The notes beneath the pieces are model-generated. The model was not told the origin of the DNA. It saw only the letters and a list, made by a program, of their open reading frames with translations, and made no database searches. Shown in pieces: positions 4,782 to 11,860 of a DNA stretch of 35,597 nt (its first letter is position 1; every line of letters starts with the position of its first letter). The DNA comes from a virus (Duplodnaviria > Heunggongvirae > Uroviricota > Caudoviricetes). The translations under genes and the position numbers were made by a program. Location of the stretch: the IMG/VR virus record IMGVR_UViG_643348551_000007; one strand, 5' to 3'.

Positions 4782-7547
4782 ATGACGGCAGAGTACATCA
4801 GGGACTGGCAACAACCGCGCCACGCAGTGGGGCGTGAAGGAACGGGGATCCCCGCTCCTGAATCCGCGCTTTCCTCCTGGCTGGATGCCTACCGGGTAGA
4901 GAACGAGCGCCGCCAGGAAATGGCTGATGCGGCGTTCTCCGCAACGCCGCTGGGCAACCTGATTAATAAAAGCCTGGACGCACAGGAAAAACAGGACAAA
5001 ACCATCACACTGGCAGGAGATGCCAGAAAACAGGCACGCGGCGCGGTGGATGAAGCCATGGCCTCGCTGCGCCTGCTGCCGTCCTATCTGCGCGATCCGC
5101 TTATTCGCCACCTCTCCTTCCTGCGCAAAAAACAGGAAGCCGATCGTCAGAAAGGCAAAAAGAGCTGGCAGGCTGAACGCTACGCGCGCGGAAACCTGCG
5201 CAAAATATTCGAACGTCTGGAGCGCACCGATCACCGCTGGCTGACACAGGGTTATCGCTCCCTTGCCGGACGCGAACGCCTTGACGATTTGCTTTACCTG
5301 CCGCAGCTCAACAAACACCAGATACAGACACTGGCCACCATGACGGCGGCGATGTTCAGCAGCACCTTCGAAAAACTCTGCGATGGCTTTGGCGCGACCG
5401 ATGGCGAACTGACCATGGATGTAACGCTGAAGGCGTATCAGATGCTGGCCCGCATGGCGTTACACCTGCACGCCATGCCTCCACATTATGACGCACTGAC
5501 AACAGACAAAGACCGGAGGAACGAACCGGACACGGAGCTGCTGCCGGGCGCAATCCTTCGCCTGACCTGTGCAGAATGGTGGAAACGCAAACTGTGGCTG
5601 TTACGTTGCGAGTGGAGAGAAGAACAACTCCGCGCCGCCTGTCTGGTTTCCAGAAAAACATCGCCCTATCTGAGCCAGGACGCGTTAAGCGAGTTTCGCG
5701 CACAGCGCGAGAAAACACGCGATTTCCTGAAAAGTTTCATGCTGGAAAATGAAGACGGGTTCACGATTGATCTCGAGACAGTGTATTACGCGGGAGTAAG
5801 TAACCCGGTTCACCGTAAGGCAGAAATGATGGCCACCATGAAGGGGCTGGAACTTCTGGCCGAAGCCCGTGGTGACAAAGCGGTGTTTCTGACTGTCACC
5901 TGCCCGTCAAAATACCACGCAACAACGGAGAACGGTCATCCGAACCCCAAATGGAACGGGGCCACCATGCGCGACTCCAGCGATTACCTGGTTAACACGT
6001 TTTTTGCGGCGGTCCGCAAAAAACTGAACCGCGACGGCCTGCGCTGGTATGGCATCCGCACGGTGGAGCCTCACCATGACGGCACCGTGCACTGGCATAT
6101 GATGGTCTTTGCTCATCCGGAAGAAATCGACAGCATCGTGGCCATCACCCGCGATATTGCCATTCAGGAAGATCGTCACGAACTGGGCGATGATATTACT
6201 CCGCGCTTTAAGGCGGAGTATGTCGACGGCTCAAAAGGCACACCAACCAGCTATATCGCGACCTACATCGGAAAAAACCTGGACAGCCGCGCCGTAGATG
6301 GCATCGACCCGAAAACGGGCAAGCCACGCGTTGACCACGAAACCGGAAAATCAATGGCCGAGAGCGTGGAGCGCGCCATTGGCTGGGCGCGTCTTCATCG
6401 GGTCCGCCAGTTCCAGTTCTTTGGCATCCCCTCCCGTCAGGTATGGCGTGAACTCCGCCGCCTTGCCAGCCAGATGGCACGCAACCCGGAAGGCCCGCAA
6501 CGGCTGAAGGATGATGCAATGGATGCGGTACTCGCTGCCGCTGATGCCGGGTGTTTTGCCTCCTACATTGAAAAACAGGGCGGCGTACTTGTTCCACGTA
6601 AAGACTACCTGATTCGCACCGCCTACGACCTCGCAGATGAGCTGAACGATTACGGCGAGCAGAGTGTACAGATTTACGGGATCTGGTCGCCGCTCATCGG
6701 GGAGTCTTCCCGCGTGTGCACGCACCCGGATAACTGGAAGCTGGTAAGACGTAAACCGGAAGCGGAAGACAGCGCCCGCGAAAATGGTTTTGACATTCAG
6801 GGCGGCCCTACCGCCCCTTGGACTCGTGGCAATAACTGTCCCCGTGTACAGGAAACAGGCAACAGCGGGACAGAACAGTCGGAAGAGCAACCAACACCGT
6901 GGTCGCAGATCCCTGACGGCGTTGATGTGGATGAATGGATGCGCTCACTGAAACGGCACGAACGCCGGGCGCTGATGCGTTCGCTGTGTGACAAACGGGC
7001 AAAAAACAGCAGTGATGAAATGCGGAGCTGGACACAGAGCCGCAAACAGCAACGGCCTTTGCCTGATAACCACGAATTACTTGCTAAAGAATGGCGGGAG
7101 TCTGCTGAATCTCTCGGCCTGCATATCGGTGAACAGCAGATGCAGCACCTGTTACGGGGCGGCAGCCTGTACGTTGACGGCAGCATCATTGCACCGCAGG
7201 GATTTGAAATTGTACGCAAACCGGATACCCGCCCGGACAGCCGAATCACGCAGCTCTGGCAGCGCCTGAGCCGTAATCACGGCGTAAGCAGCACGGAGAT
7301 CCGCCATAACCCGGTCGCCAGCTATCTGGAACAGCTAGGGGCATCAGACCCCGAAGCCGCCGCACACCTGGCATCCACACTTCAGCAAGACCTGAGCACC
7401 ATGAAAACACCAGTTACCGTGCTTTCTGACATGCTGCGCGCCATCCGTGACGCAGAGCACGCACAACGCATCAGTGCAACCACAAAGCATGTACGCCGCA
7501 AAGCTGACCTTCTACAGTCTTGGTTAAACAATAGAAATAAAGAGTAG
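4782..7547 (+). CDS. A: Rolling-circle replication initiation endonuclease, P2 A-like
   Basis: ORF track; HUH motif in GTVHWHMMVF and paired catalytic tyrosines in TSYIATYIGKN (YxxxY, as in phiX174 A / P2 A); 921 aa, longer than P2 A, with a C-terminal extension. Confidence 0.93.
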   Translation: MTAEYIRDWQQPRHAVGREGTGIPAPESALSSWLDAYRVENERRQEMADAAFSATPLGNLINKSLDAQEKQDKTITLAGDARKQARGAVDEAMASLRLLPSYLRDPLIRHLSFLRKKQEADRQKGKKSWQAERYARGNLRKIFERLERTDHRWLTQGYRSLAGRERLDDLLYLPQLNKHQIQTLATMTAAMFSSTFEKLCDGFGATDGELTMDVTLKAYQMLARMALHLHAMPPHYDALTTDKDRRNEPDTELLPGAILRLTCAEWWKRKLWLLRCEWREEQLRAACLVSRKTSPYLSQDALSEFRAQREKTRDFLKSFMLENEDGFTIDLETVYYAGVSNPVHRKAEMMATMKGLELLAEARGDKAVFLTVTCPSKYHATTENGHPNPKWNGATMRDSSDYLVNTFFAAVRKKLNRDGLRWYGIRTVEPHHDGTVHWHMMVFAHPEEIDSIVAITRDIAIQEDRHELGDDITPRFKAEYVDGSKGTPTSYIATYIGKNLDSRAVDGIDPKTGKPRVDHETGKSMAESVERAIGWARLHRVRQFQFFGIPSRQVWRELRRLASQMARNPEGPQRLKDDAMDAVLAAADAGCFASYIEKQGGVLVPRKDYLIRTAYDLADELNDYGEQSVQIYGIWSPLIGESSRVCTHPDNWKLVRRKPEAEDSARENGFDIQGGPTAPWTRGNNCPRVQETGNSGTEQSEEQPTPWSQIPDGVDVDEWMRSLKRHERRALMRSLCDKRAKNSSDEMRSWTQSRKQQRPLPDNHELLAKEWRESAESLGLHIGEQQMQHLLRGGSLYVDGSIIAPQGFEIVRKPDTRPDSRITQLWQRLSRNHGVSSTEIRHNPVASYLEQLGASDPEAAAHLASTLQQDLSTMKTPVTVLSDMLRAIRDAEHAQRISATTKHVRRKADLLQSWLNNRNKE

Positions 7548-7681
7548 TGGATGGGTAAAAATTAATAATAAGTATAAGCAATGTCGACAAACCAAGACAC
7601 AACAAGTATTCAACACAATTAATCATGCACGTGCAAATAGCAATAACATTAACACATTATTTATATAAAAAAAGCGATCTG

Positions 7682-7738
7682 ATATTATTTCGGTTGTGGG
7701 CTTGGTATTTTCAAACCCACAACAATAATATTATTTCG
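7682..7738. terminator. Intergenic hairpin flanked by an 11-bp direct repeat; candidate bidirectional terminator between convergent A and cargo operon
   Basis: Stem GTTGTGGG (7693-7700) / CCCACAAC (7716-7723) with 15-nt loop; ATATTATTTCG occurs at 7682-7692 and again at 7728-7738; AT-rich intergenic 7548-7757. Confidence 0.4.
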
Positions 7739-7757
7739 ATATATTAAACATAGACAA

Positions 7758-8549
7758 TCACCCTATTTTTCTATGCATTTTCATGAGCTCCCTTATTAAG
7801 CTAGCATGAAAGATTGATACATCAGAAATCCTTGTATCAATAGATGAATCAATATTATCAGAAACCTTTTGCTCAAATAAATCACAGATACCATCAAGTG
7901 ACTCAATATCTTTTTCCAACTTAGAAAAACCCTTAAATAGATATAATGAATCCCTTAACTCCCCAAGCTTTGAAAATAGTTGGCTATCTAGTAATGATAT
8001 AAATTCATCAGGGGGAAGCCCCATCGCATCCTTAAAATCTTCCGTAACTTCAAAAGCTAATCCATTAATTTTAGGGAGAATAACTTCTCGTAACCAATAC
8101 CCTTCGTTTATAGCTTCATTTCTTCCTTTATAATGCTGCCACAAAGGAACTCCTACAGATGCAATTAGCGCAATAATTGAAATTGCTATAGAGTACCATT
8201 CAGGTCCTGATTCAGGAACTCTAACGATATTATAGAGATTCCCCGATGAGGTTGAGGGGTAATATCCATTCAGAACATAATTATCAGGTTTATCATAAAG
8301 AAGGTGCGGTGTAAACTTCCTTTCATAACTATTGCATAATTTTAGATCGCTATTTTTTCCAATGCATATATCAGCATTAAAAATGTTTCCACTCTTTGGT
8401 TCTATTACGTGAGACTCTGAATTTTGCGAATCCATGTTAGACGCGGTTCTTTCTGGATATGTCGCAGAGCAAGCGGATATATTAACAAAAAAAATGACAG
8501 GCAATGCTGTCATTTTAAAAACAGAGCACAAATCAGAAGAACGGAACAT
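7758..8549 (-). CDS. Predicted membrane lipoprotein, third gene of the cargo operon
   Basis: ORF track; N-terminus MFRSSDLCSVFKMTALPVIFFVNISAC has a signal-peptide-like hydrophobic core and lipobox-like ISAC; internal hydrophobic helix WYSIAISIIALIASVGVPLW; acidic C-terminal domain; AT-rich; overlaps upstream gene by 17 bp. Confidence 0.65.
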   Translation of the reverse strand: MFRSSDLCSVFKMTALPVIFFVNISACSATYPERTASNMDSQNSESHVIEPKSGNIFNADICIGKNSDLKLCNSYERKFTPHLLYDKPDNYVLNGYYPSTSSGNLYNIVRVPESGPEWYSIAISIIALIASVGVPLWQHYKGRNEAINEGYWLREVILPKINGLAFEVTEDFKDAMGLPPDEFISLLDSQLFSKLGELRDSLYLFKGFSKLEKDIESLDGICDLFEQKVSDNIDSSIDTRISDVSIFHASLIRELMKMHRKIG

Positions 8550-8877
8550 TTCGATGTAATCCTCTTCTCACAGCCCTATCCAGCTCAGAAAGCATTCCTT
8601 CTTTATAATTCACTCCATCTAAAGATGTTCTGCTATAAAATTCATTCGGAGATGAAAAAAGAGGCAATATATTCTCTAGCATACCCAAAAAGTATGAGCT
8701 TGACACAACCACACCATTCGGAATTGATAGAAAAATCCTATCATTGTTATCAAAAGTAAAGCGATCTATGCCAAAGAAACTATATGCCTTGCGACCATTA
8801 TCACGCCCAGCAAATAATTTCTTGCCGCCATCTTTAACTAATTTATTGAAATCTATATAAATATTTGCCATTTTCAT
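8533..8877 (-). CDS. Small STAS-like (DUF4325-like) protein, second gene of the cargo operon
   Basis: 114 aa; segment FLSIPNGVVVSSSYFLGMLENIL resembles the DUF4325/STAS-like signature (hydrophobic-x-SSSF-x-D/E-L), a family typically encoded next to GHKL ATPases; starts 11 bp after the ATPase stop. Confidence 0.6.
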   Translation of the reverse strand: MKMANIYIDFNKLVKDGGKKLFAGRDNGRKAYSFFGIDRFTFDNNDRIFLSIPNGVVVSSSYFLGMLENILPLFSSPNEFYSRTSLDGVNYKEGMLSELDRAVRRGLHRNVPFF

Positions 8878-8888
8878 TTACCTATTCC

Positions 8889-10265
8889 TCAGGTTCTTTG
8901 AGTTGCATTTTCCGGTAAAGGAAAACGTATATTAATCATAACTCCCGGAAAACGGGCTTTCTGCATACACTTAAGATAGGTACGATCTGGTTCAGATTCA
9001 AGCCCTGTATTATTAAATGGATAAGTGAATTTGTCACTTTGGTTATCTAACGTTTGCTTTTTCAACTTATAAGAACCATCAAAGTTTATATGTGTGCATC
9101 CAGAAATTAAAGACATTCTGATGTTTCCACTTAGTTCTTTGGATAGTTCTTTTAAACTATCATGCATATCCTGGAAAAACTTCAATAGTTCAATGGTTCC
9201 CGTACCAGAACTATCTGTCTCCGTTTCATTTTTACAACTAACCCGCCCCTGCAAAGCAGCGACTGTAATCAAACCTTCTCTAAACATCCCTTTTTTATTT
9301 ATGTGTTTTTCCACATAAGGGATTATGTGATTGTTATATGAATAATGTTCTAAAGAAAGTCCTGAAAAAGTTTCATCAATAGTTTTTCCAAAGTTAAAAA
9401 CAGCTATTTCACATGTTGGCTGTTTTAAGCCATTATTTACAAACCCCCTCAAATACCAACGCGGACGCTGCTCAAGCCCACAATGTCTCTCTGCATTATC
9501 AAGTAATTCGCCCATGCAAGATGTTAGATGGTTTTCTGCCTTGCTAACTAATTTTAATTGATGATCACTTAGACACTCGTTTATATAATTAGTGAATTTC
9601 TCAGACATTCTATTTTTGGTATCTTGTGCAAATGCAGACGCATTTTCCTTGCCGATACTATCAGCAGAGAATATTCTTTTCTTAGGGTTATCTTTTTTCG
9701 ATTTTTCTGTTTCATCATGCACCTTCCCTGGCGTCACTTTATTTATTTCTTTAACCAACCCGATGTCACGAATAATTTCTAAATATTTTTCATCCTTCGG
9801 ATAAATGCCATTAAGTTGTACTTGAGCATCTTTTAAATTTATATTGTGACGTTTGGCTGAGCTCAGTGCAACACCAAGGAGACATTCCGCACCTAAACAA
9901 TGCTTTTTATTTTTAGTATAATCAAGCAAATATGATTTACGTTTACCCCTGGCAATCAATCTAGTTACACCATGAATAAACAAAAGAGATTTTTCTGGAT
10001 GATCAAACAAATCGAAATATTTAGGTATTATTATTCTATCTTCTTTGCGACGAAGAGTTGCAGTATCATATTTCTTTACGGATGAAATACTTTCAATAAA
10101 AGTAGCCACCTGACTTTTCACTGGTGTTACTTCGTCAGAAAAATGTAACCTTTCATAGGCTTTATATTTAATTCTTCTTTTATTTTTTCTCTCAACGCCT
10201 TTTAAAAAGCGAATCCAACCACGTAAAAAGCGTTTTCTTGCATCCTTTTTATCTATTTTTTTCAC
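8889..10265 (-). CDS. GHKL-superfamily (histidine/serine-kinase-like) ATPase, first gene of the cargo operon
   Basis: 458 aa; Bergerat-fold N-box ELLDNAERH and glycine-rich DSSGTGT downstream; lysine-rich N-terminal region of about 240 aa; apparent GTG start with AAGGTG Shine-Dalgarno; AT-rich. Confidence 0.7.
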   Translation of the reverse strand: MKKIDKKDARKRFLRGWIRFLKGVERKNKRRIKYKAYERLHFSDEVTPVKSQVATFIESISSVKKYDTATLRRKEDRIIIPKYFDLFDHPEKSLLFIHGVTRLIARGKRKSYLLDYTKNKKHCLGAECLLGVALSSAKRHNINLKDAQVQLNGIYPKDEKYLEIIRDIGLVKEINKVTPGKVHDETEKSKKDNPKKRIFSADSIGKENASAFAQDTKNRMSEKFTNYINECLSDHQLKLVSKAENHLTSCMGELLDNAERHCGLEQRPRWYLRGFVNNGLKQPTCEIAVFNFGKTIDETFSGLSLEHYSYNNHIIPYVEKHINKKGMFREGLITVAALQGRVSCKNETETDSSGTGTIELLKFFQDMHDSLKELSKELSGNIRMSLISGCTHINFDGSYKLKKQTLDNQSDKFTYPFNNTGLESEPDRTYLKCMQKARFPGVMINIRFPLPENATQRT

Positions 10266-10299
10266 AATTCACCTTACTTAACAAACATCTATACTACTT

Positions 10300-10340
10300 C
10301 ATTGCAAAGTATACATATCACTTGCTAATACACAATATGG
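10300..10340 (-). promoter_or_regulatory. Candidate sigma70 promoter for the cargo operon
   Basis: On the minus strand TTGTGT - 16 nt - TATACT about 40-70 nt upstream of the GTG start at 10265; sequence inspection only. Confidence 0.25.
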
Positions 10341-10485
10341 CTTCGAGATAATCCGCAGCATCTGCACAATAGTGCACAAATTTGCACAATTTTTTTGAAC
10401 GACTTTTTGCCCTTCCGGCCCGCATGGCGGCTGGATCCGTCAAGGATCCGTGCGTGCACAAAAAAACACACTTTTTCTGCGCGCA

Positions 10486-10504
10486 GGTGACGGGGGAACA
10501 GCCC
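10486..10504. other. Putative cos (cohesive end) site region
   Basis: GGTGACGGGGGAACAGCCC matches about 13 of 19 positions of the P2 cos overhang as I recall it (GGCGAGGCGGGGAAAGCAC); lies in the noncoding gap between the tin/old slot and Q where P2 cos is located. Confidence 0.2.
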
Positions 10505-10813
10505 GCGTTTCAGGGGGTAAATAGCATTCCCTGAACGATGTCGCAGAGATACAACAGAATGGCTGTATTTCTCACGCTGAGCGTGAAAAAGACGTGAGAG
10601 CTTTTGATTTGATGGGGTGAAAGGTAAGGCCGTCAAAATCGCACTGAGACGGCGAGAACATGCAGTCAACGCGGTGGGATTGCGTAAGAGTCTGACTGTC
10701 GATGATGGCAATCAGCAGGAAAGCGTCGTGAAATTATCTGACTGATACAGGAGCTGGAGAGTCGGGGCATAAATTTTTTATGCCCCGGCGAAGCAGCAGA
10801 CAAGCGAAGCGCG

Positions 10814-11860
10814 TCAGGATGTGGGCTGGGTGTCTAACAGTGCGTAAGGGTTAAAGCGGATCACCTCTTCGCCAAGCCAGTCATTGATGTGCTTCATGGC
10901 CTCCATGACGGGCATCAGCTCGTTAATTGCGTAAACCCGCGCGGCCTTCTCCACATCACCAAACGCACTTTTTTCGCCCGGCATTGCCCCCATCAGTTGC
11001 GGCGGAACGCGGTGCGCAGCCAGCACATCATCACGGGATGCCGCCTTAACATTCATGAACTCATCCTTTGCGGTGATCTGCTGGAACGGCAAAATTTGCA
11101 CCCCCTCTTTGCCCCCGTTGGGCGCATGAATGAGCACGTTTTTAAACGCACCACCACCACGTGCCCCCTGTAGCGTTTCTTTCAGGGAGTCCATGCTTTC
11201 GCGGTTTACCTGCGCTGCACCGATGTAGATGATGCACCCGGCGTGGGATCCGTTGTCGTAATACAGTTTTCTGAACATGTCCGCCGAATGAGACAGGCTG
11301 GCCGAGAGTAATGCGCCAAGATATTCCGGCATGCCGTAGATTTCCTGGTTAATATCCGGATTCATCAGGTGGCACACTTTGCCAGGGCGAAACTGGAACG
11401 CGTCCTTGCCATCCTGCACATACCACCATGATTCAAGATCGCTTCCGCGTCGCATGTATTTCGCCAGGGCGTGCCGTAATTTAAGCGGTTCACCGAGCAT
11501 ATTGCTTCGAAGCTCAAGGAATGCGTTACCGAACACAAACCAGTCCAGCGCCAGCGCCGAGAAATCCTGCCGGGAAAGCAGCGGGTGCGGAATATAGCAA
11601 CCGAGCAATACATTGCGCTTAAAGTAAAGCGCAGACTGATGCCAGGACGTTTGCCGGGCAGCTCTTGCCAGACCGTACCAGTCCACCGGGGTTTCATACC
11701 ACCGCCCGTTATCAGCACAGTACATATTGTCCAGCAGGTCATGCCCGGTCAGGCGATAAGGACCATCAAATGTGAATGCACTGAGCGATGATTCTTTCCT
11801 GAGCGCATCAGCGAGATCAATGCGTGAACTCATGCGCACTTTTTTATTTTTTCTGCTCAT
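10814..11860 (-). CDS. Q: Portal protein
   Basis: ORF track; 348 aa (P2 Q is 344 aa); leftward gene pair with terminase next to cos, as in P2. Confidence 0.9.
   Translation of the reverse strand: MSRKNKKVRMSSRIDLADALRKESSLSAFTFDGPYRLTGHDLLDNMYCADNGRWYETPVDWYGLARAARQTSWHQSALYFKRNVLLGCYIPHPLLSRQDFSALALDWFVFGNAFLELRSNMLGEPLKLRHALAKYMRRGSDLESWWYVQDGKDAFQFRPGKVCHLMNPDINQEIYGMPEYLGALLSASLSHSADMFRKLYYDNGSHAGCIIYIGAAQVNRESMDSLKETLQGARGGGAFKNVLIHAPNGGKEGVQILPFQQITAKDEFMNVKAASRDDVLAAHRVPPQLMGAMPGEKSAFGDVEKAARVYAINELMPVMEAMKHINDWLGEEVIRFNPYALLDTQPTS

Follow-up and report, generated by a model that had tools for sequence, protein, structure and literature searches.

A candidate membrane effector encoded with a STAS/GHKL protein and a STAS-like protein in the cos-proximal hotspot of a P2-like prophage of Escherichia coli

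The DNA analysed here (the window; IMG/VR record IMGVR_UViG_643348551_000007, 35,597 nucleotides) was found to contain a P2-like prophage of the P88/Xuanwuvirus type, located in Escherichia coli and adjoining btuC. Three co-oriented cargo genes, named here A, B and C, were found on the minus strand in the interval that separates gpA, which encodes the replication endonuclease, from the portal gene gpQ, gene C being the third and last of them. Gene C encodes a membrane protein, and it is considered here, at slightly less than an even chance, to be a membrane effector or toxin that would be gated by a putative kinase (A) and a putative STAS antitoxin (B) in a prophage defence hotspot. The trio and its surroundings were found to contain the following features.

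8889..10265, minus strand: gene A, 458 amino acids (aa), STAS-like and SpoIIAB-like GHKL protein
8533..8877, minus strand: gene B, 114 aa, DUF4325/STAS-like protein, its final 17 nucleotides overlapping the start of gene C
7758..8549, minus strand: gene C, 263-aa membrane protein, RefSeq WP_012565106 'hypothetical protein'
7550..10500, no strand: AT-rich cargo island between gpA and gpQ
4782..7547, plus strand: replication endonuclease gene gpA, one flank of the trio
10814..11860, minus strand: portal gene gpQ, the other flank of the trio

The guanine-plus-cytosine content was 30-37% in the cassette compared with 52-59% in the phage backbone, and the site was found to be the cos-proximal hotspot of P2, where variable genes are located between gpA and gpQ. 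The gpA-gpQ slot houses old and tin in P2 and is a reservoir of anti-phage systems, and 3 of 8 additional systems tested from the P2 hotspot were active (Rousset et al. 2022). A near-identical cassette (at least 99.5% identity and at least 80% query coverage) was found in 8 of 5,426 complete E. coli genomes, with all the three genes annotated as 'hypothetical protein'.

The 263 codons of gene C and its stop were found to be arranged, on the minus strand, as follows.

8469..8549, minus strand: predicted signal peptide, codons 1-27, with n-region R3/K12 and h-region about 13-26, ending in the lipobox I-S-A-C
8199..8468, minus strand: predicted periplasmic spacer, codons 28-117, predicted disordered (predicted local distance difference test score, pLDDT, below 50), 10-23% identity between homologues
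8136..8198, minus strand: transmembrane (TM) helix, codons 118-138, from the sequence and AlphaFold2
7761..8135, minus strand: predicted cytoplasmic domain, codons 139-263, starting with the family-wide motif INEGYWLREVILPKIN and containing a four-helix bundle at 146-262

The M1 codon of gene C was found to be preceded, about 10 nucleotides upstream, by the Shine-Dalgarno-like motif AGAGGA. Met13 was considered as the start and was rejected, since no such motif was found before it and the n-region would lose its positive charge. An earlier note, made from the sequence of this DNA alone, had proposed a signal-peptide-like segment ending in a lipobox-like ISAC, and this was borne out. The positively charged n-region was followed by an h-region of about 13 residues with a mean Kyte-Doolittle value of 1.4-1.7, which is the length of a signal peptide and too short for a stable membrane span, and by I24-S25-A26-C27, which fits the lipobox [LVI][ASTVI][GAS]C with Cys inside the required positions 15-35. 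The older PROSITE pattern PS00013 was not matched, owing to Asn at position -4. The Cys27 residue was found to be invariant in 15 of 15 close homologues despite their diverging surroundings.

The region that follows the lipobox was described in the same note as Ser/Asn-rich and polar; the composition was confirmed (29% Ser+Asn+Thr) and the length was found to be 90 aa (28-117), not about 110. The AlphaFold2 model, built on a 15-sequence alignment, gave no confident structure for residues 1-110. In the alignment of close homologues, the stretch from residue 105 to the end was well conserved and residues 28-100 were not, the conservation of the spacer being limited to the juxtamembrane stretch N107...VPESGPEW. 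This was followed by the presence of the one strongly hydrophobic helix that had been proposed, WYSIAISIIALIASVGVPLW (residues 118-137), with a 19-residue Kyte-Doolittle mean of up to 1.96, modelled as a TM helix at 117-142. The residues S124, A127, L128, S131 and P135 in this helix were invariant in close homologues and share one helical face, and these conserved small or polar residues suggest helix-helix packing. The up-down four-helix bundle that follows was predicted at a pLDDT of 83-92. The C-terminal 125 aa contained 23 Asp+Glu against 16 Lys+Arg (net -7), which makes this domain moderately acidic and not 'highly acidic' as had been stated.

Throughout the family, the 15 residues before the TM helix were mostly net negative and the 15 residues after it mostly zero to +4, and on the basis of these flanking charges the spacer would be periplasmic and the bundle cytoplasmic. 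The proposal of domains on both sides of the inner membrane is thus supported as to topology; it does not hold for two folded domains, since the periplasmic part was predicted disordered, poorly conserved (identity of about 20% among homologues) and absent in short forms and the sole folded domain would be cytoplasmic.

In a word-indexed search, 15 clusters at 35-51% identity to C were found in Enterobacterales and Aeromonas, followed by 36 representatives of 73-286 aa at E ≤ 1e-3 among 1.84 billion proteins in an exhaustive profile search, none of these 36 hits being fused to another domain. Gene C is therefore not a chance open reading frame, given the 15 homologue clusters with invariant Cys27 and the 36 representatives. 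The N-terminus was found to vary among 59 distinct members. A lipobox-like Cys was contained in 27 of them (11 strict and 16 relaxed), some with sites such as IIGC-D and AVGC-D, in which the Asp at +2 is an inner-membrane retention signal. About 19 contained a signal-like N-terminus without a canonical lipobox (for example ...VISYA/AEGE in Klebsiella, resembling a signal-peptidase I site), and about 13 were without a detectable signal, several of which were short forms of 170-200 aa containing the TM helix and the bundle only. The core was kept throughout the family and consisted of the TM helix followed directly by [NH][DE]G[FY]W-x-R-x-V-x-x-P and the helical domain.

Because the N-terminus varies, the spacer diverges and short forms lack both, the lipid anchor and the periplasmic spacer are, as judged from the alignments, lineage-specific additions outside the conserved core, and the putative business end of C is the TM helix together with the cytoplasmic bundle. 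In comparison with the nearest locus, identity was 72% for A and 75% for B, and 45% for C overall, with 23% in its periplasmic part and 58% in its TM and cytoplasmic part; over matched loci, C evolves faster than A and B. The C family is uncharacterised and rare.

The overlap of genes B and C had been given as 17 bp, and it was found to be exactly so (8533-8549); it fits translational coupling of B and C. A 10-bp hairpin with a T-run (AAAATGACAGCATTGCCTGTCATTTT TTTTGTT; 8491-8516, minus strand) was recovered by the terminator scan in the signal-peptide codons of C, right past this overlap. It might influence how far C is read through or translated, or might be a chance occurrence in AT-rich sequence. 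The genes gpA and C converge, and in the AT-rich interval that separates them an 8-bp inverted repeat with a 15-nucleotide loop, GTTGTGGG ... CCCACAAC, was seen at 7693-7723 of the window; the repeat was not called by the consensus scan and may be a terminator for both directions. Upstream of gene A, no qualifying promoter was found in the consensus promoter scan; a weak TTGTGT-16-TATACT was seen by eye and is not claimed.

Relatives of A were collected from one genome per species and were found at 24 loci in Gamma-, Beta- and Alphaproteobacteria, in Opitutaceae and in a metagenome-assembled genome of Pseudobdellovibrionaceae. At each of the 24 loci, two genes came next after the relative of A, the first B-like (102-157 aa) and the second encoding a small membrane protein (167-283 aa). 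The third protein of 23 loci was compared with the C-family profile, and a match was obtained for 16 of them (L009-L022), with E values of 6e-90 to 0.003 for a nominal database of 1e6 sequences, the match at L023 being marginal (E 1.8). At L024-L031, the eight loci furthest removed, no homology to the C profile was detectable, and the third protein was of the same size with a hydrophobic N-terminus.

In E. coli, Enterobacter and Klebsiella, P2-like prophages were found to carry remote homologues of A in this same portal-gpA slot, with a gene of 114 aa and then one of 213-266 aa coming after each. Diverged trios in the gpQ-gpA slot were represented by loci L002-L007 and by the protein clusters P0012 and P0117, identity to the window being about 50% for A and about 28-45% for C, and the B variant P0117 was present on 157 contigs. 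As several diverged versions of the trio exist, the family is commoner than the 8 of 5,426 genomes with the exact cassette would indicate.

The neighbourhoods outside prophages contained type I HsdM and AbiEi/AbiEii at L015, C5 DNA methylases at L016 and L019, and a PLD nuclease with an SNF2 helicase at L021, and integrase-like open reading frames were recognised by sequence motifs near the non-prophage trios. These neighbourhoods fit a mobile defence module. At L012 (Paraburkholderia sp. BL9I2N2), a second module was found at 9273-10614, about 900 bp downstream of the trio, consisting of a 300-aa fusion of HATPase_c and DUF4325 (Pfam E 1.3e-5 and 1.3e-8, respectively) and, after it, an overlapping gene for a 155-aa single-TM protein; the combination of a GHKL/STAS unit and a small membrane protein may thus recur there in another form.

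The B family was found to contain 63 clusters, all of 102-120 aa. The profile DUF4325 ('STAS-like domain') was matched by 6 of 19 members from the loci, the best of these weak matches having an E value of 4e-4, and by 2 of 33 members in a diverse set. The label 'STAS-like' given to gene B in the earlier note is therefore reasonable, with support that is weak, coming as it does from these profile matches. In an alignment of 33 sequences (15-77% identity), only G28, S61 and G65 were invariant, the latter two in the motif (S/T)(S/P)-S61-(F/Y)-(F/V)-x-G65, which is SSSYFLG in gene B with the Ser61 codon at 8695-8697. The phospho-acceptor serines of STAS proteins are located at the start of helix alpha-2, and Ser61 of B is putatively at their position.

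The AlphaFold2 model of A was confident (pLDDT 84, predicted template modelling score 0.83) and contained a basic N-terminal part of about 70 residues, followed by a STAS-like part (about 72-202) and a SpoIIAB-like GHKL part (about 215-450). These are two distinct folds and hence two domains, and their predicted order, STAS followed by GHKL, is that of a VapKSC-type kinase. The N-box ELLDNAERH was found at residues 253-261 (nucleotides 9483-9509), and E253, N257, H261 and G354-x-G356-T were invariant across 33 sequences with identity down to 24%. In the STAS-like domain of A, the acceptor position was not occupied by Ser. Neither A nor B gave anything meaningful when its profile was searched against the PDB.

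All the three proteins were without a match in Pfam and NCBIfam. In PHROGs, gene C gave no match, and A and B gave weak matches of unknown function only; in a set of 50,697 phage genomes, no match to C or to A was obtained by tblastn. The protein accessions of the trio are listed in Table S5A of Rousset et al. (2022) as 'hypothetical + hypothetical + hypothetical', and the trio is absent from the systems tested there (Table S2) and was not cloned there. Rst_3HP ('hp + hp + hp', E. coli E1114; Rousset et al. 2022) is likewise composed of three hypothetical proteins in the same P2 hotspot. Identity of the trio with this validated system was ruled out, since the Rst_3HP proteins are unrelated, soluble and of 340-360 aa with no TM protein among them, and PADLOC gave no match.

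The closest likeness in organisation was found with the kinase/STAS systems described by Chambers et al. (EMBO J 2026, PMC13373217), in which CapK is a helix-turn-helix (HTH)-STAS-GHKL kinase and CapS is a STAS-winged-HTH repressor. VapKSC is a three-gene toxin-antitoxin-like operon of the same study, in which VapK contains STAS and GHKL kinase domains and VapC is a PIN nuclease, inhibited through the binding of VapS, a STAS protein of 116 aa (PMC13373217). The phosphomimetic S48E of VapS abolishes VapC binding and antitoxin activity and so releases the toxin; single-stranded DNA (ssDNA) activates CapK in vitro, VapK is predicted to bind ssDNA, and VapKSC protects by about 2 logs against phage Bas42 (PMC13373217). 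The sequences of VapS and VapK were taken from the deposited AF3 model of that study, and VapS was recovered as DUF4325 at E 2.7e-17, with a weak HATPase_c match only for VapK in Pfam.

VapKSC contains, in this order, a STAS+GHKL kinase, a STAS protein (DUF4325) of about 115 aa whose helix alpha-2 bears an invariant Ser, and an output protein, and the trio follows the same order with B as a putative STAS protein of that size and C as the putative output; VapKSC is often located near defence genes, and both are found in Escherichia. The alignment of A with VapK was colinear, STAS to STAS and GELLDNAERH to WEIYANSFEH, and the alignment of B with VapS placed S60/S61 of B at S48 of VapS (Ser61 within one residue) with the aromatic pair aligned. 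A hint as to the trigger comes from position 122 of A, just ahead of STAS helix alpha-2: 28 of the 33 members have Tyr, His or Phe there, and the position lies within one residue of the aligned VapK F54, a predicted ssDNA-stacking residue, in an alignment that itself has an E value of 0.079.

The trio differs from VapKSC in that its third gene encodes a membrane protein and not a VapC/PIN nuclease, in the length of A, which at 458 aa exceeds the 302 aa of VapK and includes an additional basic stretch of about 70 aa at its N-terminus, and in the G1 box, which contains Asn in A and Asp in VapK. The trio is not assigned to the VapKSC family, as the third gene is without VapC/PIN and encodes a membrane protein with a four-helix bundle and no Pfam match. 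The N-terminal region of A (codons 1-70, 10056-10265) was modelled as a long, very basic helix, KKIDKKDARKRFLRGWIRFLKGVERKNKRRIKYKAYERL, at a pLDDT of about 80-90; it is missing from VapK and is not the HTH of CapK. The modelled helix could bind nucleic acid or membrane.

In the modules SpoIIAB-SpoIIAA and RsbW-RsbV, the STAS partners carry their phospho-acceptor Ser where helix alpha-2 starts, and a kinase sets which partner the STAS protein holds; B and A of the trio would correspond to this STAS partner and this kinase. The trio differs from them in that no sigma factor is present, the third partner being a membrane protein, in that A contains an in-cis STAS-like domain lacking the acceptor Ser, and in that the cassette is without a phosphatase gene. 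The membrane effectors of abortive infection, among them the system '2TM + 1TM + TIR' of the P2-like phage AC1 from the same gpA-gpQ hotspot (Rousset et al. 2022), are, as C would be, small membrane proteins whose genes adjoin that of a cytoplasmic sensor within a defence locus. No sequence or fold relationship with these membrane effectors was found; control would here be exerted by a kinase and a STAS protein in place of a nucleotide signal, and C contains a signal peptide with a lipobox followed by a single span.

The earlier note had left open whether C is an effector or a superinfection-exclusion protein, and the effector is considered the best reading, exclusion being disfavoured. Because A and B resemble the kinase/antitoxin pair VapK/VapS and because C holds the position of the toxin gene in VapKSC, C is probably to be read as a membrane-acting toxin, within the limits of the just-below-even chance given above. 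C was also found to be the only member of the trio without a regulatory fold, which counts for an effector. A B/C overlap of this kind is common in antitoxin-toxin pairs and fits coupled synthesis, and the fastest evolution of C among the trio supports the effector reading.

Several results weigh against this reading. No recognisable pore-forming or enzymatic fold was found in C: it contained only one TM helix, and its four-helix bundle is of a generic kind, with designed bundles as the best structural matches. The STAS fold of B, itself putative, is based on weak Pfam matches only, and a precomputed Pfam domain was found in 0 of 63 B clusters. The hhalign comparisons of A with VapK (E 0.079) and of B with VapS (E 0.028 to 0.19) were not significant, and for this reason a shared architecture with VapKSC is claimed and not family membership. 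The G1-box Asp contacts adenine in GHKL proteins, and it was replaced by Asn in 32 of 33 members of the A family; at codon 291 of A (9393-9395), the G1 box was N-F-G-K-T instead of D-x-G-x-G, and VapK keeps the Asp (VVDFGVGI). The kinase activity of A is therefore not assured, and the change may mean altered nucleotide use or weak catalysis. A PADLOC search with all the three proteins gave no match, and the position in the hotspot is by itself no proof of a role in defence.

By analogy with VapKSC and with the partner switching of SpoIIAB/SpoIIAA and RsbW, the following mechanism may be drawn up. C would be exported and acylated at Cys27, and the TM helix would then stop transfer, so that the spacer would end up periplasmic and the bundle would stay cytoplasmic. 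In the uninfected cell, unphosphorylated B would bind the cytoplasmic bundle of C and keep C inactive. An infection cue, possibly ssDNA as for CapK/VapK, would activate the kinase A, which would phosphorylate B on the invariant Ser61, and phosphorylated B would let go of C. Free C would then self-associate through the small-residue face of its TM helix and damage the inner membrane, and the infection would be aborted. A partner-switching module with a membrane toxin as its output, in place of a sigma factor or a nuclease, in which a lipid-anchored protein with one inner-membrane span would be restrained through its bundle by a STAS antitoxin until phosphorylation by the STAS-GHKL kinase frees it for assembly and killing of the cell, is put forward tentatively, with distinctly less than even confidence.

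Two other readings keep C at the membrane and change what it does there or how it is inserted. C may be a membrane anchor or sensor that localises A and B to the inner membrane and signals an event at the envelope, for example the entry of phage DNA or damage to the membrane, with phosphorylation of phage or host proteins by A as the output. The absence of a recognisable toxic fold in C is in agreement with this, as is the finding that conservation in C is highest in the juxtamembrane and first-helix motif, which would be expected of a docking surface, and the long basic N-terminal helix of A could lie on the membrane or bind nucleic acid. However, the periplasmic segment was disordered, unconserved and missing in short forms, so that C has no obvious sensing domain, neither A nor B contains an effector domain, and the third gene is a toxin in the one characterised analogue (VapKSC); this reading appears unlikely, though it deserves mention. 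It is about equally doubtful that the N-terminal segment is an uncleaved and unlipidated first TM helix, C being a two-TM hairpin with both termini inside and the loop outside. The close homologues with a non-canonical Pro at -3 (PTAC), the Asn at -4 of the window protein that is excluded by the old PROSITE pattern, and the many family members without a lipobox Cys would agree with a hairpin. The h-region of only about 13 residues would not, nor would the retention of Cys27 in all 15 close homologues while its surroundings diverge; some homologues contained a textbook lipobox with Asp at +2 (IIGC-D, AVGC-D) and others an Ala-x-Ala-type cleavage site, so that cleavage seems to be the rule.

The remaining two readings concern the purpose of the cassette. 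Some known prophage exclusion factors are small envelope lipoproteins, and C, which is prophage-encoded with a lipobox signal peptide and a periplasm-exposed segment, could be a superinfection-exclusion lipoprotein that blocks incoming phage DNA at the envelope under regulation by A and B. This is very unlikely, because C was never found alone and was always the third of a trio, also in non-prophage chromosomal settings, and because no folded or conserved periplasmic domain was found, with short members lacking the periplasmic part and about half of the family lacking a lipobox-like Cys. The cassette could also be a stress-responsive or prophage-physiology module, for example for DNA-damage-triggered addiction or membrane remodelling, with no anti-phage role. 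Many cargos of the P2 hotspot are not defence genes, including partition systems and cytolethal distending toxin (Rousset et al. 2022), and the boundary between immune and general stress pathways is regarded as blurred by the CapKS/VapKSC authors (PMC13373217). The trio was, however, found next to restriction-modification, AbiE and PLD+helicase genes in unrelated taxa, and it occupies the old/tin slot of P2-like phages, which leaves a purely physiological role improbable.

Elsewhere in the window, two overlapping small genes, annotated as 'hypothetical' in RefSeq, were found at 209-1008 on the minus strand, between the integrase and the prophage end adjoining btuC. They encode a 146-aa coiled coil with a C-terminal tail-anchor TM helix and a 120-aa protein with two CxxC pairs, and this gene pair may be a second cargo module.

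In the literature searched, no prior study of the trio was found, and no description was found of a kinase/STAS logic coupled to a membrane protein. The kinase/STAS control logic was already published in 2026, and its coupling to a membrane protein appears new. C is also a handy test case of a lipobox signal peptide followed by a stop-transfer helix. If the effector reading is true, the kinase/STAS switch of CapKS and VapKSC would be a portable unit that drives a membrane effector besides a repressor or a nuclease, and C would represent a new effector class for kinase/STAS immune modules. It would be a rare lipoprotein that also spans the inner membrane, adding a rare and uncharacterised membrane-protein family, and a function would be given to a 'hypothetical' cassette of the P2-like prophages of Enterobacterales and to the trios of Beta- and Alphaproteobacteria.

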